A DNA stretch of 64,000 nt from a virus (lineage: Duplodnaviria; Caudoviricetes), in the IMG/VR virus record IMGVR_UViG_3300031992_000031, positions 1-64,000 of that record; one strand, given 5' to 3'. Position 1 is the first letter of the stretch; the number at the start of each line of letters is the position of its first letter. Below are positions 23,445 to 57,013 of this stretch, one piece after another. The notes under the pieces were generated by a model. It had not been told where the DNA came from. It saw only the letters and a list, made by a program, of their open reading frames with translations, and searched no databases. The position numbers and the translations under genes are program-made.

Positions 23445-23532
23445 AGCCCCGCGGTCCGTGGCGGACAGACGGTCTCTAAAACCGTGGCCTCTGAAGCAAA
23501 CGAAGTAGGTTCGATTCCTACCGGGGCTGCCA
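23445..23532 (+). tRNA. Amber suppressor tRNA, anticodon CUA (probably Gln)
   Basis: AGCCCCG/CGGGGCT acceptor + G-CCA; ACGGT-CTCTAAA-ACCGT anticodon arm; GTAGG-TTCGATT-CCTAC T arm. Confidence 0.85.
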
Positions 23533-28050: not shown

Positions 28051-29446
28051 AAATAAAATTCAATATCAAAAAGAGCAAGATCAGATACTAAAAACAATAT
28101 TGGATTATCGTTTTTTTAAACCGTGGAATAATATTGAGCAAATGGTTAATGACGCCGCGCTAAGAAACGATTCTAATTTAGAATTATTTATAAGCGGAAC
28201 CTGTAATCAACATTGTGATTATTGTTATTTATATAAGCATAAGGGCTTATATCCTCCTGAGTGTGATAACCCAGAACAGATTTTAAAAAATTTAAAAATA
28301 TTATATGACTATATTTTAGTTAATGATTATAATATTCCTGTTATTGATATATTTTCTGGCGAGATCTGGCATACTCAATTTGGTCTTGACATTTTACAAA
28401 TTACATTAGATTATATAAAAAAGGGAATGAAAGTAGAACAAATTTTAACTACCACTAATGGATATTTCCTTTCTAATGATATTAGTTTCCAAAAAATTCA
28501 ATCTTATATTAATCAATTTAATAATATAGGTTGCCCATTAGTATTTTCACTATCTATTGATGGTAAAATACTTGATAATGAATTTCGCGCTCGAAATAAT
28601 GGAATTGAATATGATGATAATTTTTATGATCATGTATTTAGTTTTTGTCGAGAAAATAATTTTCTATTTCATCCTATGGTATCTTCTAAAAACGTATTTA
28701 AATGGAAAGAAAATTATGAGTGGTGGAAAAAACAACTTAATTATTATAATTTTGATTTTAGTGCTATTATGACATTAGAAGTCCGCGATGCTGATTGGAC
28801 TGCAGAATCTATTAAAGCTTATTGTGAATTTAATAATTATCTAATTGATGACTTTATTAAAAATTATTGTCATAATAGTATTGAAACATTTGCTAAGGCA
28901 ATTACTGGAGTCCGTAAAACAAATGAAGTCCCCGATGTTGGAGGCTATCATCCTTGGACAATTGGGCCGGTTGACTCTTTTTTAGGATGTACCGTTTCAA
29001 ATCATTTAACTGTTCGAGTAGGAGATTTAGCAATTTGTCCATGTCATCGTACAGCATATAAAGAATATCTTTATGGATATTTTGTGGTTGAAAACGATCA
29101 AATCGTAGATATTAAATCTGAAAATCCATTAATGGCTATGAAAATTTTGATGGGGAATTTAAAATCAACAACTCCATTATGTACATATTGCATTTATAAT
29201 GATATATGCTTACATGGATGCTTAGGCAGTCAATTAGAAACTATGCATGATCCATTTTTCCCAATTGATAATGTCTGTAAATTATTTAGAGCGAAATATC
29301 ATAATTTGTTAAAATATTATAGACAATTAGGAGTAATTGATTATTTAAAACAAATTCCTATATCAGAAATAGATAATGAGCAAGCAAAGTTTATTGTAAA
29401 TATTGATAAATTAGACAGAGAGGTGTATCCAGACGATGTGGAATAA
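28034..29446 (+). CDS. Radical SAM/SPASM peptide maturase
   Basis: CNQHCDYC motif; SLSIDG; C...GDLAICPCHR...CTYC...CLHGCLG...C auxiliary cysteines. Confidence 0.9.
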   Translation: MSVLAENKIQYQKEQDQILKTILDYRFFKPWNNIEQMVNDAALRNDSNLELFISGTCNQHCDYCYLYKHKGLYPPECDNPEQILKNLKILYDYILVNDYNIPVIDIFSGEIWHTQFGLDILQITLDYIKKGMKVEQILTTTNGYFLSNDISFQKIQSYINQFNNIGCPLVFSLSIDGKILDNEFRARNNGIEYDDNFYDHVFSFCRENNFLFHPMVSSKNVFKWKENYEWWKKQLNYYNFDFSAIMTLEVRDADWTAESIKAYCEFNNYLIDDFIKNYCHNSIETFAKAITGVRKTNEVPDVGGYHPWTIGPVDSFLGCTVSNHLTVRVGDLAICPCHRTAYKEYLYGYFVVENDQIVDIKSENPLMAMKILMGNLKSTTPLCTYCIYNDICLHGCLGSQLETMHDPFFPIDNVCKLFRAKYHNLLKYYRQLGVIDYLKQIPISEIDNEQAKFIVNIDKLDREVYPDDVE

Positions 29447-29744
29447 TGCAAATGAAATTTTTCCTACGGGTTTTTCACCAGATATAAATGGAATAATTTA
29501 TAGTAATGATAGACTACCTGAAAGTGGTATAGAATTTATTAGGTGTGTAAAACCGAAATTCGCGCGTAAAATGCTCATTCAAGAAAACTCTCAAATTTGG
29601 GGATCTGAAGGATAGTACGCTGAAGCAATAGACTATAATATATATTCACAAACTTTCCATCCAGATGATAAATGGCTTCCGTTAAGTGTTTATGGGCAAT
29701 CAATGATTAATAATTATTTATATTTCCATGACATGGATGCTTAA
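29436..29744 (+). CDS. Hypothetical protein ending the operon; TAG=Gln
   Basis: GAGG RBS; overlaps radical SAM stop; one TAG. Confidence 0.55.
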
Positions 29745-29765
29745 ATTGCAGCGTTTGCTGCATAT

Positions 29766-29836
29766 GCGTCATTGGTGTAATGGTAACACGTGTGCCCTCC
29801 AAGCATACGTTGACAGTTCAAATCTGTTATGACGCT
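29766..29836 (+). tRNA. tRNA-Gly(TCC)
   Basis: GCGTCAT/ATGACGC acceptor; loop CCTCCAA. Confidence 0.8.
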
Positions 29837-30456
29837 CTTAGGTTCTTCTCTTAACCTATCGCGACAATAGAGAAGCGGCATGAAAGCGCCGTATAAGTAC
29901 TTCGGGCACCGATACTATGTCTTAGCTTGCCTAGGAAAGTAAAGTATCCGACGAGTTATAACGTCCGTAAAAGTGATATAACCGTATTAATGCCACGTAT
30001 GCGCATTCGCAGTACCGCTAAGGCGTTATAGAGCGGCGTAAGGCGACACGAGACATCGCTGGCGTAAGTAGGAATTGCGAGCCTATAAGCGCCGATTCCC
30101 GCATTTCTGGCGACCCATCGCAAATGGCTAGCAGGATTTGCGGGAATTTTTTTATTTGACTTTTTCTTTAATTTCATATATAATATCTATGAAAGGAGCG
30201 AGAAAATGAAATTTATAGTTGATCAGATGCCAGAGCATAAAGATGACTGTCCATTCGCAAGATGGGAATCATATCCGCCATGTGTGGAAAAAATTGGTGA
30301 TTGGTATTGTAGTTTTAGAAATCGTAAATTATGTGATTTAGAAGAAAATGAATGTAAATGGTTAAAAGAATATAAATCATAATAAGATTTTTATTTGACT
30401 TTTTATTAAATTTAGTATATAATATATGTAGATAAAGAGAAAAGGAGATTTTAATT

Positions 30457-30648
30457 ATGGAACGTATCAAAATGATCTACAATTTTAATGAAGGTGACAA
30501 AGAATCCTACGATGAAAAGACAGTTTCTGTTGTTCGCAATAGCGTAGAAGGGCTTCATGACTATGACGTATGCGAAATGTTTATGGATTTCATGAATTCA
30601 ATTGGATTCTCGGAAGAAAATATTTTTAGATACTTTAAGGAAGAATAA
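30457..30648 (+). CDS. Hypothetical protein
   Basis: AAGGAG RBS; upstream promoter. Confidence 0.6.
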   Translation: MERIKMIYNFNEGDKESYDEKTVSVVRNSVEGLHDYDVCEMFMDFMNSIGFSEENIFRYFKEE

Positions 30649-30652
30649 ATAT

Positions 30653-30681
30653 TTGACTTTCAATATAATTTCTGATATAAT
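30653..30681 (+). promoter_or_regulatory. Sigma-A promoter for an RNA cluster
   Basis: TTGACT-17-TATAAT with TG. Confidence 0.7.
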
Positions 30682-30733
30682 AATTATGTTGAAAGGCGAT
30701 GGGAACTATTTCAATGGTGAGAAGTTCTCATAT

Positions 30734-30806
30734 CGAACACTAGCTCAGTAGGCAGAGCAGCATCCTTATAAGTTGCGTGTGCCTGGTTCAAATCCAGGGT
30801 GTTCGA
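30734..30806 (+). tRNA. tRNA-Ile(TAT)
   Basis: CGAACAC/GTGTTCG acceptor; loop CTTATAA; canonical D and T arms. Confidence 0.75.
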
Positions 30807-30953
30807 CTATAAACCGAGTGCCTGTGGGCTCTCATTTCCAGAGAGCAGTCGCTCTAAACCCAGATGAAGCACAAAGACTCCGTAGTCCAGAGCGAGGACA
30901 TCCCTTTGGAGTTTGCCGGATTTACATTTTTGCGGTTTACCGGTATATTTATA

Positions 30954-31016
30954 TAGGCACACGCAGCAAACTTTTTTGAACAATTGTCTGTTAAACAATC
31001 AAGTTTATAGTGCCTA
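30954..31016 (+). ncRNA. CAGCAA stem element copy 1
   Basis: TAGGCAC-ACGCAGCAAA...GTGCCTA. Confidence 0.55.
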
Positions 31017-31468
31017 GTTTCCCAATAAGGCAGCATGGAGTAGCGCGAAACGAAGTGCTTGAGGGACGGGAACCACCATCTATGGGCCCGCAAGTAAAGA
31101 TAGATGGCGTATGAGAGAAGGAATATCTAGACTCCCCACTCGGCTAAACGGAATAGCAAAAGGTGACGGCTAGATCGCAAAGATTTTATCGGTTATTCAT
31201 AGTGCGTAAGATTATGGCAAACCGAGATAGCTATCGCTCGGAGAGACCGAGGATAAATAATCAAGCCCATTCTATGAAATGGTACAGCGCAAAGTTAGTA
31301 GATGACCGCTGGTATTGATTGGCGCTTTATAAAAGAGGATTAAATCGAAGGTTATTGCTCGAAAACCGCAGGGAGGAGTGGAGCTCCTCACCGGTCAGTA
31401 AACTGGAATAGATGGTTCGATTCCATATGCGGCGTACCGATATAAAGTTCGGAGTAGAGCAATTTTAT

Positions 31469-31539
31469 GCACCATTGATGTAGTGGCAACATAGCACGTT
31501 GCCAACGTGTTTTCACCAGTTCAAATCTGGTATGGTGCT
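31469..31539 (+). tRNA. tRNA-Gly(GCC)
   Basis: GCACCAT/ATGGTGC; loop TTGCCAA. Confidence 0.85.
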
Positions 31540-31543
31540 CTTA

Positions 31544-31668
31544 TAGACACATACAGCAAACCTTTTTCTAATGATGATTGAGGATCCGTGTGTTACAAGT
31601 TCGAACCTTGTCTAGCGCATCGCGCTAGTAGCTCAATTGGTAGAGCGACGTACTATTGAATGTGTCTA
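31544..31668 (+). ncRNA. Y RNA (YrlA)-like RNA: CAGCAA stem enclosing a circularly permuted tRNA domain
   Basis: TAGACACA...TGTGTCTA stem; T arm precedes closed acceptor hairpin CTAGCGC-ATC-GCGCTAG and D arm. Confidence 0.65.
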
Positions 31669-31900
31669 GTTTTTCCGCTTGATCAGCGGTGTCCGACAAC
31701 TGGACAATGTTACAAGAAGTTGTAGCCGGTAGCGCAGGGTTGATCTGCGTAGAGGGACAGTATTTTGTATGAGTGTCTTGGGTTCGAATCCCACACTGGC
31801 GGGAATAGTCCTGCTGGTGAGCTATGGAGCGGCTATACAAGTATTGATTTAGCTAATCTTACCTCGGTTAACTTGATAGCTACAAGTTAACCTTTTATAT

Positions 31901-31973
31901 CGCACGGTCGTCTAAAGGCTTAGGACGTTTGGCTCATAACCAAAGAATACGGGTTCGATTCCCGTCTGTGCAA
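31901..31973 (+). tRNA. tRNA-Met(CAT), initiator-like
   Basis: TTTGG-CTCATAA-CCAAA; C1:A72 mismatch. Confidence 0.75.
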
Positions 31974-32091
31974 CTTTGACTTAGGGTATCCCGCCTGAGT
32001 CATCATAAGTGTATTTGCCTGACTCGCCATCAGGCGCAATTCAGCGGTATAGAAATATACCGCTATTTGGTGTATAAAGGAGGATAATTAA

Positions 32092-33786
32092 GTGAGAGCA
32101 GCAGCTTATAGTGGTACCCGTAATATTTATTAGCAAATGCTAACCGCCGCAAAATCTCTATTAATGCATTCAAATGTTGAAAAAATATATTTTTTAATTG
32201 AAGATGATGAATTTCCCTATGAAATTCCACCAGAAATTGAATGTATAAATATAAGCAATTAGACATATTTTCCCGCAGATGGACCAAATTTTAAAAACGT
32301 ATTAACATATATGGTGCTTATTCGCGCGGCTTATACAAAAATATTTCCAGATTTAGATAGAATATTAAGTATAGATATGGATACCGTGATAAATGAAAAT
32401 ATATCTGATTTATGGGATTTAGATTTAACTAATTATTATATCGCAGCAGTAGAAGAAGCGGAATTAACAAAATCAGAAGGTTCATATTTTAATATGGGCG
32501 TTGCTATGATGAATTTACAGAAAATACGCGCCGATAAAAAAGATGATGAAATAATTAATGCTTTAAATACCTATTGGTATAGGTATAAAGAATAGGATTG
32601 TTTTAATGAATTTTTTCGAGGTCATGCTTTAATTCTTCCAAGTGATTATAATTGTTGTTATTAGGCTAACCCGCCCAAGCATGAAAAAATTACACATTTT
32701 GCTGGCTTGTATAAATTAGAACAATTCCCTCATTTTAATTATTATAAAAATTTAACGAATGATTTTCCTCGTAATGTAACGGATAATATTACACTTGATA
32801 TAATTATTCCTACTTATAAGAATAAAAAAGGATTAAGACGGACACTTAAATCAATTCCTTCTAATCCAAATGTTAATGTTATTGTAATAGATGATTGTTC
32901 TAATTTAGAATATGATGATATATTAAAAGAATATCCTTCATTAATATTCTATTAGCTAGAAAAAAATAGTGGCCCAGGAATGGCCCGTCAATATGGACTA
33001 GACCATAGTAATGGAACTTATATTACGTTTTTAGACACTGGAGATTATTTTTATGAAGATGGCCTTGACACCATCATGCGGGCTATAAATGAAAATACTT
33101 ATATTAAATTATATACTTTTTCTTATGTATATGATGATAAGAATATTTTAAGCGACCAACCAGATGATAAAACGATTGGTTCTGTTTATAAACGTTCATT
33201 TATTGAAATGTATAATATTCATTTTAATAAAAAAGGCTCATATGCGAATGAAGATTATGGCTTCAGCCGTGCTTGTAATTTAATATTAGATGATTGGTAG
33301 AGATATTTCTTTTCAGACGCGCGAAAACATATAAAAATACCAGTATTTTATGAGCATATTGATAAAAATTCATTAACAAAGGCTAATAATGATGAATTCT
33401 TTTATACACAACTTAGTCCTGGAATTATTATCAATGGTGTACATGCCATTAAAATAGCTGAAAAAGCAAAAGTAAAAACTGAATATTTATTAGAAGAATA
33501 TAATTATATTATGGCACAAGAATATTTTTTCTTCTTGTGTAATTTGTATGAGCGTCCAGAATTAGTTGATGATACATGGCAAACTATTCGTGATTTTTAT
33601 TTTAATCATTATCGTATTTATAGTAAATTCGCAATAAGAGATTTGCCGCAAAGATATGCTCAAGTCACTTTACCTAAAATTCATTCTCGTATGAAAAAAT
33701 GGGATAGAATGGCTCGTCCAAATATCATACGATTTATAAACGAATTAGAAACAGAATTATTTACTCCATCATATTATTTTCAATGA
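32092..33786 (+). CDS. Glycosyltransferase GT8-GT2 fusion; TAG=Gln
   Basis: ORFs 32311, 32707, 32980 and 33511 in one frame; SIDMD..YFNMGV (GT8) then IIIPTY...VIDDCS...GPGMARQYGL...FLD (GT2). Confidence 0.8.
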
Positions 33787-33803
33787 AATGATAAATAAAA
33801 TAT

Positions 33804-33832
33804 TTGACTTTTTATTAAATTTAAGTTATAAT
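33804..33832 (+). promoter_or_regulatory. Sigma-A promoter
   Basis: TTGACT-17-TATAAT. Confidence 0.7.
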
Positions 33833-33863
33833 ATTTATGTTGAGAGGGAGAAATCCCTCATAT

Positions 33864-33982
33864 GGCCCGGTAGCTCAGTTGGCAGAGCATGCGGCTGGTC
33901 CGATACGTTCGGTCTTAGATAGGTTCAACTCCTATATCGGAAATTAACCGCAGTGTCCTAGGTTCGAGCCCTAGTCGGGCCG
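33864..33982 (+). tRNA. tRNA-Asn(GTT) interrupted by a 46-nt insert in the anticodon
   Basis: GGCCCGG/TCGGGCC-G; TGCGG-CTG[33898-33943]TTAA-CCGCA. Confidence 0.75.
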
Positions 33983-34077
33983 CTCGTGCTTTGATGACCA
34001 AATGTAGCTTGGCAGTAAATAAACATTAATGCAGATGTGGGGTTATGATGAAAGCCTTTACCTTAAAAGACTATTAT

Positions 34078-34154
34078 GCCCGATTGGTGTAATAGGTTAG
34101 CACAGCACCCTTTCAAGGTGCAGACGTGGAGTTCAAATCTCCCATCGGGTACCA
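34078..34154 (+). tRNA. tRNA-Glu(TTC)
   Basis: GCACC-CTTTCAA-GGTGC; encoded CCA. Confidence 0.8.
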
Positions 34155-34426
34155 GTACGCCAGGATGCACGGCGTGTAATAAATGCAATCCACCGTTAAC
34201 ACGGATTTAGCACTTCAACTACCACCGGCATGAAACCTGCCGCGAAAGCAATTAAGTACGCTTGATAACAAGCGGGCAGATCAGTAGTGATATGTGGCAT
34301 AAGCGGAAAACGGTATATAAAGAAGCGAAGTAAAGTGCACTTAGGGTAGCATCGGAGTAATTAACCGATGAGATAATGCGCTCCATCGCAAGCCTAATTT
34401 TAAATATAATCTATGGAGGGATTATT

Positions 34427-35257
34427 ATGATAGGTATTTATAAAATTACTAATAAATTAACTGGAAAAAGTTATATCGGACAAAGCGTACAAATTGAAAC
34501 TCGATGGTCGCAGCATAAATCAGTGAGTCGATCTTATGATACTTTAGATGGGAATGAATTACATAAGGATATATTAGAATTAGGTATTGATAATTTTTCA
34601 TTTGAGATTATAGAAGAGACAACTGCCGATAAATTAGATGAACGAGAAATATATTGGATTAAATATTATGATACTTTTTATAATGGTTATAATCATACAT
34701 TAGGCGGTAATGGTAATATAAGATTAAATTATAATAAAATACAAGAATTATGGAATCAAGGTTTAACTTCTAAAGAAATAGCTTCTTTGATAAATAGTTC
34801 TAGAGATACGGTTAATTATGCCTTAACTAATTTGGGCATTTCTACATTAGAAAAACGTATACGAAGTCAAGAATTAATTATGCAAGCATATGCCACGTAT
34901 AAAAGAAATGTATTAAAATTGGATATAGACACAAACGAAATAATTGAATCATTTGAGTCAGTTTCTGAAGCGGCAAAATCTTTAGGAGTTAATCGTGCTA
35001 CTTTTCGTGAAGGATTACAAAAACATAATAATAAATATAAGGGATATAAATGGATTATTAATATAGAAACTAAAAACACTCGTGATTTTTCAGCTAAAAA
35101 AGTAGCTAAATTAGATCCTGAAACAAAAGAACCTCTTGAATATTTTGAGTCTGCTAGTGCTGCTGCAAGAGCAATGAATCTTGCAGGAGCAACTCTAATT
35201 TGTAGAGCATGTAAAAACAATACCAAATCGAGAGGGTTCTATTGGAAATATATATAA
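34427..35257 (+). CDS. GIY-YIG homing endonuclease with NUMOD1/HTH repeats
   Basis: MIGIYKITN...SYIGQS; FESVSEAAK and FESASAAAR repeats. Confidence 0.9.
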   Translation: MIGIYKITNKLTGKSYIGQSVQIETRWSQHKSVSRSYDTLDGNELHKDILELGIDNFSFEIIEETTADKLDEREIYWIKYYDTFYNGYNHTLGGNGNIRLNYNKIQELWNQGLTSKEIASLINSSRDTVNYALTNLGISTLEKRIRSQELIMQAYATYKRNVLKLDIDTNEIIESFESVSEAAKSLGVNRATFREGLQKHNNKYKGYKWIINIETKNTRDFSAKKVAKLDPETKEPLEYFESASAAARAMNLAGATLICRACKNNTKSRGFYWKYI

Positions 35258-35267
35258 TAAGGAGAAA

Positions 35268-35813
35268 ATGTATATGAATGAACCAAGATTAAAAATTTTA
35301 CCTCCATGGGTTATCGTGATTAGGAAACTAGAAGCACTATTTGATGGCGATCCTCAGATTGCTTTCAATACTGATTTCTCTGGTGAGCATCCTTGTGTCG
35401 TACTGGCCTGCAACAATGGTGATAAAGTCGCCGCGTTGCAGAAGATTCTACCTTCTGAAGTTAACTTTGGTAATGTTACACTCGAAGTAATGGTAGATGG
35501 CGTGCCAAGCAATCGCGCATTTACAAGCAAGGTTGAACTATTTGATACTGCTTTTAGCGGCAATCCAGCTTATGCTAAGTCTGTTTGTCCTGCTGAAGAA
35601 GGCTATCAGTGGATTGGAACTACCTATGTAATATTCAAAAATTGCGTTGTACAGTTCGCAGCAGACAATCTAAACGATTGCCACGGCCTCATTAGTACCC
35701 TATATCAGACTATTGCTGAAGAACTCCTAACTGGTGAAGCAACTGATGGTGTTTTCTATAATACCGATGTAGAACGAGCGAATCTAGGCTACCCTCTTGG
35801 TGAGTGGCCATAA
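35268..35813 (+). CDS. Hypothetical protein
   Basis: AAGGAG RBS; 181 aa ORF. Confidence 0.75.
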   Translation: MYMNEPRLKILPPWVIVIRKLEALFDGDPQIAFNTDFSGEHPCVVLACNNGDKVAALQKILPSEVNFGNVTLEVMVDGVPSNRAFTSKVELFDTAFSGNPAYAKSVCPAEEGYQWIGTTYVIFKNCVVQFAADNLNDCHGLISTLYQTIAEELLTGEATDGVFYNTDVERANLGYPLGEWP

Positions 35814-35902
35814 GGAGGAAATACGAAAATGGCGCTTCTCATTCTCTGACTTATATGGGCTAGTGCCCCATATTTAAATAAGCGAGAGAAGAACTATTTA
35901 CT

Positions 35903-35964
35903 TAGACACAAGCAGCAACTTATTTCTTTATATTAAGCAAATGAAGTAGAAAAAGATGTGTCTA
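35903..35964 (+). ncRNA. CAGCAA stem element copy 3
   Basis: TAGACACA-AGCAGCAA...TGTGTCTA. Confidence 0.55.
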
Positions 35965-36074
35965 GCAACTAAATATTTGACATATAACAGAATTTCTGTT
36001 ATAATAAATATGTAAGAAGGACAGACCGACCTGCTTTAGCAGGAGGCACGAGGTGATGAGCTTCGGTTAACTTA

Positions 36075-36142
36075 TAGGCACATGCAGCAATCCTATGTTG
36101 TAAATATTACTTCTGTTTCAAGCTTTATTTAATCTGTGCCTA
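36075..36142 (+). ncRNA. CAGCAA stem element copy 4
   Basis: TAGGCACA-TGCAGCAA...TGTGCCTA. Confidence 0.55.
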
Positions 36143-36757
36143 GTAGTTTTGGTAGTATGCGCCGTTGTACCGCTCAGTGCCCGCACTGGTCGAGGTATTC
36201 TACCATATGAAACGGACTTCCCGCAGTAGGGTTATAATATACTGAGTGCTGGTCAGCGATGCGGAAAGCACTTAAAACACGGGCAGCTGACTTGCTGGTC
36301 ACAGAGGGTGTGTAGAAAGCAAGTAAAACACGGGTATGCCCAATGGGTCGTGTTTAATGAGCACCACCTTCGGATGTACACCGATCTCCAGTATGAGTAA
36401 AAACTACCGTTTGGGCTGCGTGAAACGCGCCGGGTCCACCGTGCGAATGCACAAGCACGCTCGTAAGTGCTGGGTTACGCTCCACCCGTGGGAAGTCCCC
36501 AAAGGAGGATGTACGAGAAATAGAGCTGCCGACGCCTCTACTGACGAGTATGCGTACCACGGGGCCACCGTATTCTTAAAACATTTCTTACGGTATATAA
36601 AGAAGAACTACTGACACATGGTTCGTGCCGCCAGGAAAACTTGACTTCTGCAGGAGTTGATAATAGCTAAGGGAAGTTATACGCTATTAAACCGCAAAGA
36701 GCACGCGGTATATAAAGAGAATGCTCTTGGCCGCAACTGCAAGGTGCGGCACTTTAT

Positions 36758-36841
36758 CCGGGTGTAGCCGAACGGCCCAGGCAACAGACTTAAAATCTGT
36801 CGGAGCGAAGCTCCTTGTGGGTTCGAATCCCACCACCCGGA
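36758..36841 (+). tRNA. tRNA-Leu(TAA)
   Basis: ACAGA-CTTAAAA-TCTGT; long variable arm. Confidence 0.85.
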
Positions 36842-36941
36842 CTTTCCATTAGGTGGAGCTTGAAACCTACCGCCTTTTGGCTATGATGTATTGGACGCCA
36901 TAGTTGGCGCCCTTATTTTAAAATAAAAAGGAGGAATTTTT

Positions 36942-37325
36942 ATGAAAAAACTAATCGCACTACTTATGACTCTAATGCTATGCTTTACTGCTATTCATGC
37001 CTTATCAGAAACAGTAGATAGTTCAGAGTTTAATCCTGGTATTACAATGACTCTACCGGATCCTGATTGGAAAGTAGAAATCCGTTGTGACCAAAATGGC
37101 CAAACATTACAGGTTGGTTCTAAAGTAACTCTTACTGCTGAAATCACTACAGCTCAGTCTGATTATTACAAACTATCTGATTATACTATATCTTATAATT
37201 GGCTAGCTAAAAAAACAGCTGATGACGATTGGGAATCTGTAGGCACTGGAGCAACCTATGAATTTAATCTAAATGCAGACAATGTAAACTGGATTTTTAA
37301 AGTTACTGTAACACTAAGCAAATAA
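36942..37325 (+). CDS. Secreted Ig-like domain protein
   Basis: Signal peptide MKKLIALL...; beta-rich. Confidence 0.7.
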   Translation: MKKLIALLMTLMLCFTAIHALSETVDSSEFNPGITMTLPDPDWKVEIRCDQNGQTLQVGSKVTLTAEITTAQSDYYKLSDYTISYNWLAKKTADDDWESVGTGATYEFNLNADNVNWIFKVTVTLSK

Positions 37326-37341
37326 TATGGGGTAATGTATT

Positions 37342-39480
37342 ATGAAAAAATTTCTAGCAATATTAACAGCACTATTAATACCATTTGCTAGTATTGCTGA
37401 GACAATTATAGAAAGTGATGAATACACTCCAGAAATATCAATAGATGATGGTGAGGTATACGTACCACATATTGCACCCGTAAATTTAAATAAAGTAGCC
37501 GTTTCTAAAACGGCTACTAATTTAAATGAAAATTATGAGTCTGATATAATGTTAAAAATACCCACCACCAATATTGATGTATATGATATTGTATTTGTAG
37601 TAGATGCTTCCTTATCTATAGATAATGCAGCAGATAGACTATTACAACAATATATGTCTGCAGCCGATACTAGAGATGATATTAATGTCGGAATAGTATA
37701 TTTTTATGGCAAGTCAAAAATTTATAGACAATTAGATGGTACTGTAATAGCCAAGAATCATCCTTCTCAATATACTCATCGTGGTACAAATTTGAATTCA
37801 GGTATCCTAACAGGCACTTATATGCTTGATCATCATGCCGGGGTGCCAGCCTCTAATAAGTATTTAATTATACTTAGCGATGGGGACACGCATGTATATC
37901 AAAAAAATAATCAATTTGGTTTGAATGGTACAAAAACAGAAGGAGAAACTGTAGTAGTCCAAGAATATAATGGCAACATAGTTGCCGGACCAGATACATA
38001 TCTTTTTAAGTATGGTACTTATGCTGCGCCCGCAGATTGGTATAATTATTTTATAGAGGTTGCAAAAGCTATAAATCGTGATAGCAACCTATATGAACAA
38101 ACGTGGGGATGGGATCCTCGTAATTATTATAATAATGCGACTAACTATATTACCGGTGATCTATCTACCCATGCTGTATCTTCAGATAAAGCATTATATT
38201 ATGCGATGCTTTCTTATGCCGCAGCACAACAGAAGGGATATAATTGCTATGCAGTATATGTAGATAGCGGCGACTTCTCTTATAGAACAAGCCAGTATGC
38301 ACAGTCTTTTATGAACTATTTAAATTGCGGCCGCAGCTTCTCATTAGATAACATTGGTAAAGAAATTTCCTATGTTACTACTGGAAGCTATGTAATGGAT
38401 TACATGGGTTCTGGAATTGATAATTTGGGTAATGAGTATGATATGGACTTCATTCCAGATGCAAGTAGAATGTATGTAATTTGGAATGGACAGCGGATAA
38501 ATGCCACAACTAATGATAATATCACATTCTGTTTTGGTGATTTATTTACATTAGTATATAATGACAATGAAGAAAACGATTATTTCAAATGGATTATTAA
38601 TACTAATCTGCTATTATGCGATTCTGTTGAATTACATTATAGTATTAGATTGAGTAATCCACAAACTGTTGCTGGTGAATATGGCACATATGATTTTGAT
38701 GGAACGCAAGGCGGCATTCCGCTTCTAACAAATACAACTGCGACTTTATATACTCCAGATGATACAAAGATTCAAGATTTCCCGCTACCAGCAGTTGAAT
38801 ATTCAGTAACTCCTACTCCATCACCCACTCCTACAGTGACACCTACGCCCACCACTACACCAACTCCAAGTCCAACCCCTGAGGTAACTAATACACCTTC
38901 TCCTACCGCAACTGCTACACCAGAAATTACAAATACTCCGTCACCCACTCCTACTGCTACACCAGTAGTAACGGAGACGCCAAGCCCAAGTCCGACTCCA
39001 GGGCCCAGTCCAAGCCCAACTCCTAGAATAACAGCTACACCAGAACCTAGTCCCACTCCTGTCCCAATGATTACTTTACATCTAAATAAAATTTGGGATG
39101 ATGAAGGAGCAATAGATTCTCGACCAAATCACATTTATGTTAAATTATTCGCTAATGATGTATTTATACAAACATTTAAACTTACAGCTGAAGAAGATTG
39201 GGAAATAAGTACAAATGTAAGACAATATAATGATGATGGACAAGAAATACATTATAGTTGGAAAGAAGCAGAAATTATGGGATATAGACTTGAAGAGATA
39301 CAAACTAACGGTTTAACTACCACATTAATAAATAAACTATATAGTCCTCCGACAGTCCCAGAGGGACAAAGACAGCCGCGTATTCCAAGAAATCGCATGA
39401 CAACGCTTAATATTGATGAATATGATACTGCTTTGGGCTTAGAAGGTATTATTAATCATGTAGGAGACTGCTTCGATTAA
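37342..39480 (+). CDS. Secreted/surface vWA + Pro-Thr linker + Cna-B domain protein
   Basis: Signal peptide; VVDASLS MIDAS and IILSDG; (PT)n linker; KIWDD...RP..I.VKL...W...YSWKE. Confidence 0.8.
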
Positions 39481-39738
39481 GAGGTGAAAATAATGGATAT
39501 TATTTTTGATACTCTCACTAATACAGGATGGGGCGCCGCGATTGTTGGCGTCTTCATCCTTATTGCTATTTTAATTGAATTTTTTAGCAATAAACCACAA
39601 ATTTAATATTTGACTTATAATAAAAATTCTGTTATAATTTTATTGTACCGAGGGAAAAGGATAAATCCTGACGGGGACATTGTGAAATGACAATAAACGG
39701 TATGCGCGGAACACCATCGCGCCCTTTCCCTCAACTAT

Positions 39739-39809
39739 GCCTCTATCGTACAACGGAAGTACTATTGCTTCGTAAGCAATGTATGGCGGTTCGAATCCGT
39801 CTGGAGGCT
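39739..39809 (+). tRNA. tRNA-Thr(CGT)
   Basis: ATTGC-TTCGTAA-GCAAT. Confidence 0.8.
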
Positions 39810-40138
39810 CTATACCAACGGACAAGGCTTTGGCGCATGACTACTTGGCGAATGTAGAAGATAATCATGAGGAGCAGGCGGAAGTACGAATAGAAGGCCG
39901 CGATGGATGCCACAAATGTGGGTAAGGGTAGGCGGTATGGTCTGAAATATTAGCCATACAGTAATGATTATCGTTATACTACTAAGCAAGTAGAACAGGG
40001 CGGTAGGACGCGAGTGGTTGGTATTTTAGCTAAGCCTGTTGTCGCGTTATAATACAGGTGGCACTCGTGAACGTGACGAGTAAAGTTATATGTCGCTCAT
40101 ATATGCCATGATTACGCACGGGTCGCGCCCGTATTTAT

Positions 40139-40211
40139 ACGCCGTTAGTCTAACTGGACAAAACGATAGGTTACGGCCCTGTTGATGCGGGTTCGAGTCC
40201 TGCACGGCGTA
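40139..40211 (+). tRNA. tRNA-Arg(ACG)
   Basis: ACGCCGT/ACGGCGT; loop TTACGGC. Confidence 0.75.
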
Positions 40212-40217
40212 CTTTAT

Positions 40218-40290
40218 GCCGCGGTAGTTCAGCTGATAGAACGAGTGATTAGTAATCACTAGGTCGAGGGTTTGAGTCCCTCTCGCGGCT
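40218..40290 (+). tRNA. tRNA-Thr(AGT)
   Basis: AGTGA-TTAGTAA-TCACT. Confidence 0.75.
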
Positions 40291-40295
40291 CTCAT

Positions 40296-40620
40296 GGGGC
40301 TGAAATAGTATCGACAGGTATATGAAGTATTAAGGACACGGGTAGGCGGCGCACCTTACGCAGCAACCTAAAAGAAACGACGAATTTGATTTCGCACTAG
40401 CTGCTTAATTCACGCGGCTGCTTAAACGGCGAACCTAGCAATCGGTAATCGCCTGCGGCTCAGAGAAAGATTGCCGTTAGCACCAGTCTATTGCTCTCTG
40501 GCGAAACAAAGAGCATATTTGGTTTCAAGTTTGCTAGTTTCTCAAACTAGCTATCGTGTAAGTATTTCTTAATATGAATTATAGGCTGGACACGAGGGGC
40601 AGAACTCGTCAGCTCCACCA
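40296..40620 (+). ncRNA. ssrA: tmRNA
   Basis: GGGGCTG...TCGAC start, CAGCTCC-ACCA end with G3:U; internal tag ORF ...RNDEFDFALAA*. Confidence 0.9.
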
Positions 40621-40726
40621 AATCCCATAATAGCCAGGATAGAGTGGACCTATGGACGCCCTTTAAAGTTGTTCGCGGTAGTGAGAATAACCTTCGCCGT
40701 GGCGAAGTAAAAGAGCCACGGAATAT

Positions 40727-40799
40727 GCTCCATTAGCTCAGTAGGTAGAGCACAGCACTTTTAATGCTGGTGTCCGGAGTCCGACTCTCCGATGGGGCA
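40727..40799 (+). tRNA. tRNA-Lys(TTT)
   Basis: CAGCA-CTTTTAA-TGCTG. Confidence 0.8.
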
Positions 40800-40863
40800 C
40801 TAATATTTGACTTTTAATATAAATTATATTATAATTTATATGTAGAAAGGAAGGAAGGAAGTT

Positions 40864-41046
40864 ATGAAACATACAATTTGCCCCTACTGCGGTAAAACCA
40901 ATATTGATTCAGATTCTTCTTACCGATTTAAATGCTCTTTTTGTAAAGAATGGCTAATTGATTTAGACAAAGATCATCATAGACCCGAAATATATTTTAA
41001 AGAAAGGAACGAGAATAATGATTGTATCGGCAGCAGTAAAAATTAA
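40864..41046 (+). CDS. Small zinc-ribbon protein
   Basis: CPYCG...CSFC. Confidence 0.55.
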   Translation: MKHTICPYCGKTNIDSDSSYRFKCSFCKEWLIDLDKDHHRPEIYFKERNENNDCIGSSKN

Positions 41047-41284
41047 AGACTTGCGGCAAGATAAAGAAATAATTTTACCGTGTATGCGACATTGCGATAT
41101 ATCTTTTATATTACATGAACTTAATTATAAATTAAATATTGATTATAAAATTATTGAACAAGGTTTTTTAGATGAAAATGAGACATTTTATAATCGTATT
41201 AATGCTTATGAACACGCATGGCGGCATAATCAACTTAATGAAGAATATAATATACGAGAATTATTTTCTGAAGATTTGTGGTAA
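41018..41284 (+). CDS. Hypothetical phage protein
   Basis: RH...EQGFL...F..R..A...LFSEDLW pattern. Confidence 0.7.
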   Translation: MIVSAAVKIKDLRQDKEIILPCMRHCDISFILHELNYKLNIDYKIIEQGFLDENETFYNRINAYEHAWRHNQLNEEYNIRELFSEDLW

Positions 41285-41293
41285 GGTGATGGT

Positions 41294-42193
41294 ATGAAAG
41301 ATTTAACTGGACAACGTTTTGGGCATTTAACTGTATTACGAAAATACGGACACAAAGGTGGAAGAGTTTGTTGGGAATGTTTATGTGACTGTGGTAATTT
41401 ACATTATGTAATTACCTGTAATTTAACTACGGGTCATACGACTCGTTGTTCTAAATGTTCTAATTCTGTTGTTGATTTAACTGGGCAAGTATTTGGACAA
41501 CTAACAGTTATTGATCAAAATAAAACCTATCGTAAAGAAAATAATATTAAAGGTTATCATGCTTATTGGAATTGTCTATGTAGTTGTGGTAATACCACAA
41601 TTGCAAAAGGCACTGATTTGAGTAGTGGAAAAACAACGCAATGTAAACAATGTGCTGGTAATCAGTTAATTGATGAAACTGGAAATAGATATGGTTATTT
41701 AACTATATTAAATTATTTACGGACAGAAAATCATCAAATAATTTGGCTAGCACAATGTGATTGCGGAAATCAATGTGAAGTTAGAATTAATGATCTACGT
41801 CGTGGAAGAGCAAAATTATCTTGTGGATGTAAATCCATACGTTCGAAAGGTGAATTAGAAATTGAAGAATTACTAAAACAAAATAAAATTAATTATCAAG
41901 CACAATATGTATTTGATAATTTAGTTGGGCAACGTAATCGTAGATTACCATATGATTTTGCAATTTTAACACTAGATAATCAAGTTCAACGTTTAATTGA
42001 ATTTGATGGACAACAACATAATATTAGTGTAAATTATTTTGGTGGAGATAAAGTATTAAATCGTAGAAAAGAATTAGATAAAATAAAAAATAATTATGCT
42101 AAAGAACATCATATACCATTAATTCGTATTCCATATGATAAATTAAGTAAAATTACAATTGAAATGTTACTTGGCGATGAATATTTGATATAA
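41294..42193 (+). CDS. Putative homing endonuclease: CxCG repeats + PD-(D/E)XK domain
   Basis: Three DLTGQ.FG.LTV...W.C.C.CG repeats; YDF...LIEFDGQQH...LIRIPY. Confidence 0.8.
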   Translation: MKDLTGQRFGHLTVLRKYGHKGGRVCWECLCDCGNLHYVITCNLTTGHTTRCSKCSNSVVDLTGQVFGQLTVIDQNKTYRKENNIKGYHAYWNCLCSCGNTTIAKGTDLSSGKTTQCKQCAGNQLIDETGNRYGYLTILNYLRTENHQIIWLAQCDCGNQCEVRINDLRRGRAKLSCGCKSIRSKGELEIEELLKQNKINYQAQYVFDNLVGQRNRRLPYDFAILTLDNQVQRLIEFDGQQHNISVNYFGGDKVLNRRKELDKIKNNYAKEHHIPLIRIPYDKLSKITIEMLLGDEYLI

Positions 42194-42209
42194 GTGATGG
42201 TTTATATTA

Positions 42210-42416
42210 ATGAGAAATCCGAATCGTATTAAACCTTATTGCGATGCTCTTGCCACTTTATGGCAAATTGTGCCAGACCTTCGTTTATCTCAGCTTATGT
42301 ATACTCTAATGAATGCTTGGGAAGTAAGACGTGGTTCAAGCGCATTTTACGCGGAAGATGAAGAATTTCTTGCTTTTGCATTGGAATATTTAAATGAAAT
42401 TACAGAATCCACCTGA
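42210..42416 (+). CDS. Hypothetical protein (DUF1040-like)
   Basis: MRNPNRI...W...PDLRLSQL. Confidence 0.65.
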   Translation: MRNPNRIKPYCDALATLWQIVPDLRLSQLMYTLMNAWEVRRGSSAFYAEDEEFLAFALEYLNEITEST

Positions 42417-42608
42417 CATGGCTGTGACTACAAGGCGCGGAAGGATGGCGGCAATCTCTTGCCCAAGCAAGTTGAAACGATATACACCCTTGGGATGAAA
42501 ACTCAATATAGAGTAGAGTGAGATATAACGTGAGTTTAGAACTATAGAAAATGTAGTCGGTCTCCCTGTGGCCCGTTACGCAGTAAATTGGCACAGGGGA
42601 AGCTTCAT

Positions 42609-42689
42609 CGGGATGTAGCTCAGTTGGTTTAGAGCGCCTGTATGATAAACAGGAGGTTTTCGGTAGTTCGAATCTACCCATCCCGACCA
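42609..42689 (+). tRNA. tRNA-Ile(GAT)
   Basis: CCTGT-ATGATAA-ACAGG; encoded CCA. Confidence 0.8.
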
Positions 42690-42779
42690 CCGGGGCGGGA
42701 AGCTCAAAGATGCGTGGGTGGCCAACACGGTCATGAGAGTAAAATCCAGCGCAAGTAACCCGTAGGATCCCCGGACCAT

Positions 42780-42851
42780 AGGGGAATAGTGACAATGGTA
42801 GAACAAGGGTCTCCAAAACCTTAGATCTAGGTTCGAATCCTAGTTCCCCTG
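42780..42851 (+). tRNA. tRNA-Trp(CCA)
   Basis: AGGGT-CTCCAAA-ACCTT. Confidence 0.8.
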
Positions 42852-42969
42852 CAACTTGTTGTTTCGCGAACAACCCAGTGGATGGATTTGACGCATCCCG
42901 TGTCACTACTGCGAGAGGATTACGCCTCTGTTTACAAGCGGACCAAAATCCATGAAGGTGACACACTAT

Positions 42970-43040
42970 GGGGCTATAGTTTATTAGTAGAATAGTTGGT
43001 TTGCACCCAGCAGAGGACGGAGCGTTACCGTCTAGCTCCA
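42970..43040 (+). tRNA. tRNA-Ala(TGC)
   Basis: G3:U70 acceptor; loop TTTGCAC; atypical T loop. Confidence 0.75.
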
Positions 43041-43047
43041 CATTATA

Positions 43048-43119
43048 GGTTCCAACACTCGTCGGTCGGGTACGGGTCTGCAAAATCCGCGTTAGTGAGT
43101 TCGACTCTCACTGGAACCT
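43048..43119 (+). tRNA. tRNA-Cys(GCA)
   Basis: CGGGT-CTGCAAA-ATCCG; U73. Confidence 0.75.
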
Positions 43120-43136
43120 CATTAGGAGTGACATAA

Positions 43137-43451
43137 ATGATAGGAAATTATAAAGTAATAACATTATGTGGGAGTACTCGATTTAAGGAGGACTTTGAAC
43201 GTGTCAACCGCGAACTTACCCTGGCAGGTAATATTGTTATATCCGTTGGCTGTTTTGGTCACGCTGGCGATACTTTCACGGAAGAACAGAAAGTAATGCT
43301 TGATGACATTCATAAAAGAAAAATTGATATGGCAGATGCTATTTATGTAATCAATAAAGATGGATATGTTGGTTCAAGTACAAGATGTGAAATTGGGTAT
43401 GCAATTAAACACGGAAAACAAATTATATTTATGGAAGATGATTTAATGTGA
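43137..43451 (+). CDS. Nucleoside 2-deoxyribosyltransferase-like (DUF4406-like) protein
   Basis: ITLCGSTRF...HKRKIDMADAIYV...GYVGSST..EI.YA. Confidence 0.65.
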   Translation: MIGNYKVITLCGSTRFKEDFERVNRELTLAGNIVISVGCFGHAGDTFTEEQKVMLDDIHKRKIDMADAIYVINKDGYVGSSTRCEIGYAIKHGKQIIFMEDDLM

Positions 43452-43696
43452 GAAAGGGACGCGGTATAGACCATAATTGGGATATTCGTAAGTATAAAGG
43501 TGATTTGGCTTTATACGCCCATTGTTCTTGTGGATTTCAATATGCTTGTTCTTCTAATAAAAGAAAAGAAGATGGTTCTTTTAGTTTTGAACAAGAAATT
43601 ACCAATCTATATCATTATTGTCCAAACTGTGGCTCTCATAAATTATAGTATAATGAAGAGCCAAGAAAAATGGATGCTATTTTCCCTTGGGATTAA
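43448..43696 (+). CDS. Zinc-ribbon protein; TAG=Gln
   Basis: CSCG...YCPNCG; extends through TAG to TAA. Confidence 0.55.
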
Positions 43697-43774
43697 TGAT
43701 AGCTAAACCGGACAAGCGCCGGTACCGCTTCGAAAGCGATAGGTAAGATTTAATGTAATTGGGAGGAAAAAATA

Positions 43775-44551
43775 TTGAATTATACATATGTTACTTTATT
43801 AAGTTCTGTTGATTATTTACCAGGCATATTAGCATTAAATGATAATTTAAAAAATATAGGATGCAAATATCCATTACATATAATGGTTACAAATAATGTT
43901 ATTGTCCACATTAGTAAATATCTTATTAAAGAGAAAATTCCTTTTACTATTGTTCCAAAGATTACCTACTCCCCAGAGACAATTGCAGCAATGAATAATG
44001 CAAGATTAGAAACAATCGCATCAAAAATTAATGTATTTAGACTGGAAGAATTAGAAAAAGTAGTATATTTAGATACTGATAGTTATTTTATTAAACCAAT
44101 AGATGAACTATTTAATTATCCAGATGGAGCACTCTATGATTGTGGAGAACCACGGGGATTTTGTGGACTATTTACATGTATCCCTAGAATGCATCCTTTA
44201 GATTATTATATTTCACTATTAAAGCATAATCATATGTGGGAAAGCGATTTAATTGAAGAATTATGGTTTCCTTTTAAATCTAATCCCGACTATCGTATTC
44301 CGTATTCATATTTTGTAAATACTAAAGTTCAGGATTTTAATACACTTTTACCTATTGAAGAAAAGGTACATGGATTTCATTTTTGTGGTGAATTAAAACC
44401 GTGGAAATTTAAAAATCCCTATGATTATATTACGGCATTTCATAAAGAATGGCCTTTTCCTAATGAAAATAGGAACAAAATAATTAAAGATTATTATTAT
44501 CAATATATACAACCAATTAAAGATAAATATCCTGAGATTTTTACATATTAA
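43775..44551 (+). CDS. Glycosyltransferase family 8 (glycogenin-like)
   Basis: YVTLL...YLPG...KVVYLDTD...IDELF...HFCGELKPW. Confidence 0.8.
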   Translation: MNYTYVTLLSSVDYLPGILALNDNLKNIGCKYPLHIMVTNNVIVHISKYLIKEKIPFTIVPKITYSPETIAAMNNARLETIASKINVFRLEELEKVVYLDTDSYFIKPIDELFNYPDGALYDCGEPRGFCGLFTCIPRMHPLDYYISLLKHNHMWESDLIEELWFPFKSNPDYRIPYSYFVNTKVQDFNTLLPIEEKVHGFHFCGELKPWKFKNPYDYITAFHKEWPFPNENRNKIIKDYYYQYIQPIKDKYPEIFTY

Positions 44552-44555
44552 TAAT

Positions 44556-44584
44556 TTGACAAAATTTCAAATTTATATTATAAT
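44556..44584 (+). promoter_or_regulatory. Sigma-A promoter
   Basis: TTGACA-17-TATAAT. Confidence 0.75.
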
Positions 44585-44689
44585 TATATTGTAAAAAGGA
44601 GATAAGATATACATAAAGGGCAATTTGATAAAATTTGTTGCAAAAAATTAAGAAGTAAAATCTCCTTTCTCGCGGCGCAAGCCGCATAT

Positions 44690-44763
44690 CTGGGTGTAGC
44701 GCAGTTTGGTAGCGTACTAGATTTGGGATCTAGGGGTCGAGAGTTCAAATCTCTCCACCCAGA
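44690..44763 (+). tRNA. tRNA-Pro(TGG)
   Basis: CTAGA-TTTGGGA-TCTAG. Confidence 0.85.
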
Positions 44764-44767
44764 CTTA

Positions 44768-44824
44768 TAGGCCATTACAGCAAACTTTGTAGAAATAGGA
44801 AATAATACAACAAACAATGGCCTA
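44768..44824 (+). ncRNA. CAGCAA stem element copy 5
   Basis: TAGGCCAT-TACAGCAAA...ATGGCCTA. Confidence 0.55.
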
Positions 44825-44944
44825 GCTTTATGAATATTTGCTCCATCTTGGGGCTAATAGATTGCCGCGTTAGGAACCTTATGGTGGAAGAGCCTTATTT
44901 GAAAGAGGTAGAGTAGTATCTACAACTCTTCCGCGGCGTTTTAT

Positions 44945-45099
44945 TTTTAGAACTGTAGGCTTAGAAGCAGCCATCAGCTAAAGAGTTTTCGTTTCTCCAT
45001 TCGTGCGAAATGTATTATGGGCTTACGATTATACGCCCCATAAGTATGATGTGCGATAGATAATAGAAAATGAAATTTGGCGTAATAGCACATCTAAAA
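44945..45099 (+). ncRNA. RNA resembling the 23S rRNA L11-binding domain (H43/H44)
   Basis: TGTAGGCTTAGAAGCAGCCATCA..TAAAGA...GCGTAATAGC.CA closed by TTTTAGA/TCTAAAA. Confidence 0.65.
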
Positions 45100-45100
45100 T

Positions 45101-45188
45101 GACACTATGGCCGAGTTGGTAAGGCGCTAACCTGCTAAGTTAAGGCCACTTGTAAAAGGGTGCCGAGGTTCGAATCCTCGTAGTGTCG
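45101..45188 (+). tRNA. tRNA-Ser(GCT)
   Basis: Loop CTGCTAA; long variable arm; G73. Confidence 0.8.
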
Positions 45189-45300
45189 CTTTGCGGTGGT
45201 GGAATAGGTAGACATTTGGGGCATGACACACGTAAAGAGGTATGCGAGGGCGTGAAGTCTGGGTGTGTCCTGTGAGGTGCAAATCCTCACCCGCATTTAT

Positions 45301-45457
45301 AGTCCCTTAGCGTAATGGTAGCGCAACGGACTTGTATGGGTCGTCTAGGTTGGAAGGCCGGCTCGGTGTATTAGAATACACAGATGAGAAGAAGTGAGTT
45401 CGATCCTCACCCCATGCATTGACTCCGTATGTGTTGGTCCGATTCCAACAGGGACTG
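45301..45457 (+). tRNA. tRNA-Gln(TTG) interrupted by an 86-nt tRNA-like insert in the anticodon
   Basis: AGTCCCT/AGGGACT-G; ACGGA-CTT[45334-45419]TGAC-TCCGT. Confidence 0.75.
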
Positions 45458-45496
45458 CTTTGAAACAATCTTATTTATTAAAGCTTAGGAGGAATT

Positions 45497-56660: not shown

Positions 56661-57013
56661 TGAGGCACGGCGGTTGCGGTATCTATACCGTATCAATCTA
56701 ATGGAACAGCGGGATGCTGAGGGCAATAAGCATTTGATTGCTAAGCTAAAACGCAGACTGCGTAAACTTGAGGCCGAATGAACGGCCTTTTTTATTTGAC
56801 TTTTTTATTAAATTATATTATAATTTTTATGAGGTGAGAAAAAGATGAAGTATGAATATGATCCTAATGATGCTTTATGGGATGAAGCTTATGAATGGTC
56901 CTATCAACGCGCAAGAGAAGAAGGCGATGTAGATTTAGACTATGATGAGGATTTGATCGCCGCTTGGGCCGATGAATATTATGACTATTTAATACATAGA
57001 AAGGATGATTATA

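Follow-up and report, generated by a model that had tools for sequence, protein, structure and literature searches.

The DNA analysed here (hereafter the window) is a stretch of 64,000 nt and represents the first 64 kb of a virus record of 133,461 bp (GC 34.9%). CheckV estimates the completeness of the record at about 75%, with a phage size of about 178 kb. Sheep-rumen sequencing runs cover the window almost completely, and its DNA shows a faint similarity to the Prevotella Lak megaphages. A tRNA array extends from 23.4 to 45.5 kb and includes a tmRNA as well as the cow-rumen-3 and cow-rumen-4 RNA motifs. Directly upstream of the tRNA-Asn gene that is the subject of this study, the frame of a GT8-GT2 glycosyltransferase fusion (32092-33786) contains six in-frame TAG codons, and a suppressor tRNA(CUA) is encoded at 23445-23532, which has a long arm, is labelled Pyl by ARAGORN and matches the Rfam tRNA-Sec model weakly. 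TAG is thus decoded as an amino acid in this phage. A putative sigma-70-like promoter on the plus strand (33804-33832; TTGACT, 17-nt spacer, TATAAT), recognized by its match to 11 of the 12 consensus positions, lies about 31 nt 5' of tRNA-Asn.

Several other structured RNAs are found in this part of the phage genome. The tmRNA at 40296-40620, located between tRNA-Thr and tRNA-Lys, reaches 49 bits with the Rfam model, barely above the cut-off, and is not called by ARAGORN. A cow-rumen-3 match at 36345-36440 falls within a large structured region (36150-36752) just 3' of a gene encoding a 181-aa marker protein. At the equivalent site one related locus carries a full ROOL RNA (L026, 12320-12894; 323 bits) and another a drum RNA (L004), and the region of the window may be a ROOL-like variant. 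A weak match to YrlA, a Y RNA-like family, is seen at 31587-31653 (39.2 bits against a cut-off of 69 bits), in which the T arm precedes the acceptor/D arm; it overlaps an ARAGORN call of a tRNA with a 106-nt intron at 31623-31802, which is doubtful at an Rfam score of 23.7 bits.

The tRNA-Asn(GUU) gene occupies positions 33864-33982 of the plus strand and is interrupted within its anticodon loop. The sequence reads TGCGG-CTG, 46 nt, TTAA-CCGCA, so that the loop consists of C-U-G, the 46 nt and U-U-A-A. The 5' exon (33864-33897) comprises nucleotides 1-34 of the tRNA, namely the acceptor 5' strand, the D arm, the 5' strand of the anticodon stem and C32, U33 and G34. The 3' exon (33944-33982) comprises nucleotides 35-73, beginning with U35, U36, A37 and A38 and continuing through the 3' strand of the anticodon stem, the variable loop, the T arm and the acceptor 3' strand to the discriminator G; CCA is not encoded. 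The initial annotation, made from the sequence alone, had placed a mini-tRNA-shaped insert between positions 34 and 35 of this gene, and the exact borders confirm it. In the metagenome contig L088 this gene is uninterrupted, and its exons match those of the window at 74 of 74 positions; the insert (33898-33943) therefore lies between G34 and U35, and the border CTG/TTAA has no alternative register. Contigs of another allele that skip 46 nt give the same borders. Identical exons are also found in three more pairs of insert-bearing and insert-less twins among related phages (L009/L042, L010/L027 and L026/L068).

The identity of the gene is equally clear. Deletion of 33898-33943 yields a canonical 74-nt tRNA-Asn(GTT), and the Rfam tRNA model spans the whole interrupted gene (47.2 bits, E 6e-7). 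ARAGORN misses the gene when introns are disallowed; with introns allowed it reports a 46-nt intron placed one base too far to the right and names the tRNA Thr(GGT). This threonine identity was rejected on the basis of the insert-less twins and a 27-nt exact match to tRNA-Asn. It is the only Asn gene found by ARAGORN in the 133-kb record of about 75% completeness. Folding of the 119-nt stretch by itself was uninformative (z = -1.4), with a minimum-energy fold that does not resemble a tRNA.

Comparison of related genes shows that the exons have been maintained as a tRNA. In an alignment of 11 insert-bearing Asn genes, all 231 exon stem cells are paired despite widely diverged exons, and 15 of the 21 cloverleaf pairs show compensatory double changes. 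The loop letters C-U-G and U-U-A-A are retained in every copy with an insert at the 34/35 site. Since insert-bearing genes stay under selection as tRNAs, it appears that the insert must be taken out of the RNA, with the caveat that recombination with intact alleles could help to maintain the exons.

We also examined RNA data over positions 29000-46000, using contigs rather than reads from two sheep-rumen metatranscriptome runs (X3 and X4), together with a DNA run (X1) and a goat DNA run (X5). The joint 33897 to 33944 is present in RNA contigs of X3 and X4 at depths of 113 and 100, and it is present in the DNA run X1 as well (depth 19). The joined contig carries G33979A and C33980G, and the syntenic insert-less allele L083 has both of these letters. 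As the same form occurs in DNA and shares its two letters with an insert-less allele, we rejected the contig as proof of splicing, and the joint is best read as the gene of another strain. Contigs of X4 with the window's own letters at 33979 are unjoined and sum to a depth of about 330; unspliced RNA of the window allele may therefore be abundant, a point that contigs cannot settle, and no spliced RNA assignable to this allele was seen among the X3 and X4 contigs. Skips of a similar kind occur elsewhere in the array. At 34227-34303, just 3' of tRNA-Glu, contigs skip 69-74 nt at RNA depths of 360-1060 and a DNA depth of 34, which marks a strain-variable segment in a highly expressed intergenic stretch. 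A further RNA, at 45190-45297, resembles a tRNA in having a D arm of class-II type as well as a T arm, but shows no clear anticodon arm. Contigs from the two RNA runs and from the DNA run lack 47 nt of it (45214-45260), and since the skip is seen in DNA at a phage-like depth (25.9), it is a presence/absence polymorphism of co-occurring strains.

The 46-nt insert resembles a tRNA minihelix, that is, an acceptor-like stem stacked on a T arm. In the order of the sequence, G33898 corresponds to base 1 of the stem in the insert family and faces A33942 in a G.A mismatch; it is followed by the 5' strand of the acceptor-like stem (TCCGAT, 33899-33904), a 14-nt linker (33905-33918), a T-arm-like hairpin (ATAGG-TTCAACT-CCTAT, 33919-33935) whose TTCAACT loop agrees with the consensus of tRNA T-loops, the 3' strand of the acceptor-like stem (ATCGGA, 33936-33941) and a tail of two A (33942-33943). 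Evaluated as a single sequence, the fold does not go beyond chance, as the minihelix (-9.2 kcal/mol) is only near-optimal and a two-hairpin fold reaches -9.9 kcal/mol, whereas the comparative data do go beyond chance. In an alignment of 18 related short inserts, the 12 minihelix pairs are 95.8% paired, against 61.9% in shuffled alignments and 27-43% in slid controls. Compensatory changes are found in 10 of these 12 pairs, the covariation score is 0.94 (0.25 when shuffled), and the closing G-C pair of the T-arm-like hairpin, equivalent to G53-C61, is invariant in all 18 inserts. The minihelix reading of the initial annotation and its expectation that the structure would be conserved across phages are both borne out by this alignment and by the covariance model (R1) built from it.

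Relative to its family, the insert of the window is a degenerate member, whose stem terminates in a G.A opposition and whose tail is AA instead of N-CCA. The family typically has 7 + 5 bp in the acceptor-like and T-like stems, and the window has 6 + 5 bp plus the terminal mismatch; the base that would pair with G1 appears to have been lost. The inserts of relatives carry a tail of N-CCA, N-CAA or AA; the tail in the window is one or two A, and 3' N-CCA is absent. A short AA tail is also found in the related loci L003 and L009. The T-like loop reads GGCAGCA or TGCAAGT in many relatives and TTCAACT in the window. The insert scores 32.8 bits with R1, a value to be read with the fact that it is itself among the 18 sequences used for building the model. 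It could be a decaying copy.

A second interrupted gene lies near the end of the array. The tRNA-Gln(UUG) gene at 45301-45458 (plus strand) contains an 86-nt insert (45333/4-45418/9) at position 33/34 or 34/35, and this insert has a whole tRNA-like fold of its own. The initial annotation had cited this gene as a second case. The insert by itself scores 23.3 bits with the Rfam tRNA model and has a long extra arm and an acceptor stem that begins with G1-C72 and U2.G71. Its exons are identical at 72 of 72 positions to those of an insert-less relative (L038), and the same insert occurs in L053. ARAGORN again misnames the gene, as Thr(TGT).

To place these genes in a broader context, 80 loci of related rumen phages (records up to about 200 kb) were retrieved with the neighbouring 181-aa gene, and short inserts were identified by ARAGORN and by comparing interrupted with intron-less tRNAs pair by pair. 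This gave about 30 different inserts, 43-105 nt in length, in Asn, Gln, Lys, Leu(UAA), Trp and Ile-type tRNAs of related phages of 130-200 kb; the case in the window is thus not a one-off, dozens of such inserts being present in the relatives. Every family insert starts at base 1 of a stem of 6-9 bp and contains a hairpin of 5 bp whose loop has 7 nt. In at least 17 of the roughly 30 distinct inserts the tail is ACCA or GCCA and abuts the 3' exon directly, where the random expectation for CCA at a given place is 1/64; the others end in ACAA, GCAA or AA. The insertion sites are 32/33 in Leu, 34/35 in Asn, Gln and Lys, and 35/36 and 36/37 in Lys and Trp. Since the same element families are found in different tRNAs and at different loop positions, the inserts are mobile, with junctions that are set by the ends of the element itself and not by the target. 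The idea that the inserts are linked to tRNAs for amide amino acids is refuted by the same observation, as tRNAs for Lys, Leu, Trp and Ile carry these families too, the sites ranging from 32/33 to 36/37.

The insert of the window clearly belongs to a lineage at Asn 34/35, of which 12 insert copies are present among about 62 Asn genes of the relatives, and about 50 of the 62 are insert-less. Over 1.35 Mb of related loci, each true R1 hit falls within an anticodon loop. No free-standing mini-tRNA that could be a source gene was found by R1 in the window with the filters off or in the 1.35 Mb, no further R1 match besides the Asn insert was seen in the window, and no exact copies of the insert or of its junctions were found in IMG/VR. 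The best explanation is an insert family confined to tRNA anticodon loops in a lineage of TAG-recoded rumen phages. Because close relatives possess insert-less twin alleles with identical exons, we argue that the insert is dispensable, and a selfish mobile intron fits better than a needed device; the element is probably selfish rather than useful. A free-standing homing endonuclease of the GIY-YIG/NUMOD1 type is encoded at 34376-35257 inside the tRNA array, an arrangement that recalls SegB of phage T4. Collaborative homing with this enzyme was considered and rejected, as homologs with 77% identity (L012, L013, L014 and L024) lie beside plain Asn genes and most insert-bearing alleles are without the endonuclease.

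Taken together, the element in the window is a real, conserved and mobile mini-tRNA intron in a functional-looking tRNA-Asn gene. As to its removal, we give roughly even weight to the proposal that this mini-tRNA intron of a mobile, selfish-type family is taken out by RNase P, a 3' endonuclease and a phage ligase, all of these being enzymatic steps that we infer. An acceptor stem with a T arm is the minimal substrate of RNase P, the hallmarks of which are a coaxial acceptor + T stem of about 12 bp, a T-loop closed by G53-C61 and 3' N-CCA; the window insert shows the first two of these and lacks the third. Host RNase P would take the minihelix for a precursor tRNA and cut at its first base, and the 5' border of every insert copy coincides with the expected RNase P site. 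RNase P leaves a leader with 3'-OH, the end needed by an ATP-dependent ligase, and this 3'-OH would here belong to the 5' exon. An endonuclease cut at the end of the tail would then produce a 5'-phosphate on the 3' exon, and the two halves, held together by the tRNA body, could be sealed by the ATP-dependent RNA ligase encoded at 54428-55651 (plus strand).

This ligase is of the NgrRnl/DraRnl type, with an N-terminal OB fold and a nucleotidyltransferase domain (PF21189 and PF09414; PHA02142 OB fold plus RNA_ligase domain; TIGR02306 match), and its closest solved relative is the RNA ligase of Naegleria gruberi (PDB 5cot, E 2e-27). With regard to a polynucleotide kinase-phosphatase like that of phage T4, only a calcineurin-like phosphoesterase at 57005-57877 was noted. 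We regard the ligase as a candidate exon-sealing enzyme. Among related records, a ligase above the family cut-off is present in 13 of the 15 that carry mini-inserts and in 4 of the 11 that do not, a comparison confounded by relatedness. Ligases of the NgrRnl type prefer nicks in duplexes over nicks in loops, and the enzyme may serve ordinary tRNA repair. The Rnl1 family (PF09511) gave no match in the record, and the control for this model matched nowhere either. The 3' cut is the weak point of this route. The tails vary in length from 1 to 4 nt (ACCA, ACAA or AA in relatives, one or two A in the window). This variation argues against a simple ruler-type 3' cut, and an RNase Z-like cut after the discriminator would fail to restore a loop of 7 nt. 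No RNase Z-type metallo-beta-lactamase, reverse transcriptase or CCA-adding enzyme was found in the 133-kb record of about 75% completeness.

A further-reaching version of the RNase P model, which we put forward only tentatively, is that the inserts constitute a new class of intron, a mini-tRNA excised by RNase P at base 1 and by an endonuclease at the CCA end, sealed by a ligase and spread by the reverse path. In such a path an anticodon nuclease would nick an anticodon loop, a freed mini-tRNA ending in CCA would be inserted there by ligation, and the product would subsequently be copied to DNA. This would explain why the copies run from base 1 to CCA, why the loop positions vary and why free-standing copies are not seen.

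Other readings of the insert have to be weighed against the same evidence. The RNase P model would be mistaken if the intron were removed by an endonuclease of host or phage origin that reads the three-way junction of the anticodon stem and the minihelix and cuts both borders, leaving a cyclic phosphate and a 5'-OH to be rejoined by host RtcB or by a kinase and a ligase. The selection on the exons is expected under this reading too, the variable tail length and the variable loop site (32/33 to 36/37) suit it better than they suit a minihelix ruler, and RtcB occurs in Bacteroidota, the control genome of B. thetaiotaomicron being positive. We nevertheless consider it unlikely: it leaves unexplained why the inserts begin at base 1 of an acceptor-like stem and frequently end in N-CCA, and neither EndA (PF01974) nor RtcB was found in the 133-kb record of about 75% completeness, where the EndA control matched four archaea only. 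Moreover, we know of no bacterial or phage endonuclease of this junction-reading kind. It is quite unlikely, in our estimate, that the insert simply stays in, in which case a selfish element would have inactivated the gene, the phage would use the tRNA-Asn of its host and the fold would serve the spread of the element. Such a fate would agree with the degenerate state of the window copy (no CCA, a G.A mismatch), with the frequency of insert-less Asn alleles in the relatives, and with RNA contigs that are unjoined, possibly abundant, and include no spliced product assignable to the window allele. Dead genes, however, would not be expected to keep every stem cell paired and to change most cloverleaf pairs on both sides across 11 diverged copies, nor to keep the loop letters on either side of the 34/35 site. 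Four separate insert lineages each have an insert-less twin whose exons are identical, so that the insert has been gained or lost without change of the exons, which again speaks against inactivation.

The possibility raised in the initial annotation, that the insert is useful and shields the tRNA from anticodon nucleases or modification enzymes of the host, or delays maturation until the phage ligase is made, appears very unlikely. The insertion sites are the classic sites of anticodon nucleases, colicin E5 acting at 34/35 of the tRNAs for Asn, Tyr, His and Asp and PrrC at 33/34 of tRNA-Lys; the phage also encodes an RNA ligase. But close relatives with identical exons do without the insert, and the affected tRNAs differ between phages with no pattern. 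Hardly credible is a self-cleaving or self-splicing ribozyme, for which nothing speaks beyond the RNA being conserved and structured. The insert consists of two simple helices, and as its linker and loop vary in sequence, hardly any conserved positions remain from which a catalytic core could be formed. Self-splicing is excluded, as 46 nt are too small for it and a comparison with Rfam at E up to 1 gave no intron or ribozyme family for the insert. The bulge-helix-bulge route is excluded as well, on account of the junction geometry and the absence of EndA from the record.

The broader meaning of these genes concerns RNA splicing as well as annotation. To our knowledge, the tRNA introns recognized so far in bacteria and their viruses are all self-splicing. 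Because inserts of 43-105 nt are too small to splice themselves and yet the split genes stay under tRNA selection, an unrecognized splicing route, dependent on protein or on RNase P, would have to exist in infected bacteria. Standard tRNA finders miss or misname such genes (both Asn and Gln become Thr), and inventories of phage tRNAs and of codon recoding are distorted as a result. The window insert is in addition a natural "minimal" variant, indicating that neither the CCA tail nor the 1-72 pair is strictly maintained.

Several known systems share parts of this picture. In the bulge-helix-bulge introns of Archaea and Eukaryotes, EndA or TSEN cuts at two 3-nt bulges separated by a 4-bp helix and RtcB or Trl1 joins the halves. 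Like the window insert they are small and interrupt the tRNA at the anticodon loop or close to it, and, as is proposed for the window insert, they depend on protein and their exon halves are rejoined by an RNA ligase, whereas the borders of the window insert flank a 7-bp helix, the first base of the insert is paired in the conserved structure and there is no bulge at the 5' border. We know of no EndA in bacteria. tRNA-like signals cut by RNase P and RNase Z are represented by the mascRNA of MALAT1, the t-elements of plant mitochondria and mitochondrial tRNA punctuation, and by analogy with the proposed route a tRNA-shaped module within a longer RNA recruits enzymes that trim tRNA ends. Those systems release the flanking RNAs; here the flanks are tRNA halves that would need to be ligated. 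In phage T4, Pnkp and Rnl1 reseal the tRNA-Lys cut by PrrC, which offers an analogy for a phage RNA ligase acting on a nick in the anticodon loop, with the difference that T4 repairs damage by means of Rnl1 and that a programmed splicing with a ligase of the NgrRnl/DraRnl type is proposed for the window phage.

Group I introns occur in the anticodon loop of tRNA-Leu(UAA) in cyanobacteria and plastids. They resemble the window insert in their location in a bacterial-type anticodon loop, in their mobility and in the existence of intron-less alleles, and differ from it as ribozymes of 175-280 nt recognized by Rfam RF00028, whereas the 46-nt insert has no catalytic core (P3-P9), no match and far less than the roughly 200 nt expected of such an intron. 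True group I introns (RF00028) are also carried by tRNA-Leu(UAA) genes of the relatives (L004, 9113-9363; L026, 11043-11227), so that two unrelated types of intron coexist in these tRNA arrays. Such introns were also noted in L010, L032, L044, L050 and L064, and by shared sequence blocks the suppressor tRNA(CUA) carries them too.

The closest comparison is with the Lak phages, which have genomes of 540 kb, as against about 178 kb and 35% GC for the window phage. Their tRNAs for Tyr, Phe, Gly and Thr contain introns described as "enigmatic", which are identical across cohorts and one of which may encode a tRNA, and Asn(GTT) is without an intron in the published Lak genomes (Devoto et al., 2019, Nat Microbiol, PMC6784885). 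Like the family described here, these introns are short, interrupt the anticodon loop in tRNA genes of phages of gut or rumen that recode TAG, have presence/absence alleles in close relatives, belong to no Rfam intron family and look like a tRNA. Lak-type tRNA introns are reportedly mentioned by Crisci et al. as well. In our own reading of Table S6 of PMC6784885, the Lak introns of Tyr, Phe, Gly and Thr also end with a T arm, an acceptor 3' strand and a tail of 2-3 nt. They are longer (79-114 nt) and have a 5' hairpin of 26-30 nt and an A-rich spacer before the tRNA-like part (PMC6784885), both of which are absent from the window insert, while the window family begins at base 1 of the stem, reaches down to 43-50 nt and mostly ends in N-CCA. 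A literature search returned no paper describing the base-1-to-CCA design or a route of removal or splicing; a survey of 2026 states that such phage tRNA introns "could encode another tRNA" (PMC13037316). tRNA-like introns in phage tRNAs have thus already been reported descriptively in 2019 and 2026, and the variant that runs from base 1 to CCA is new.
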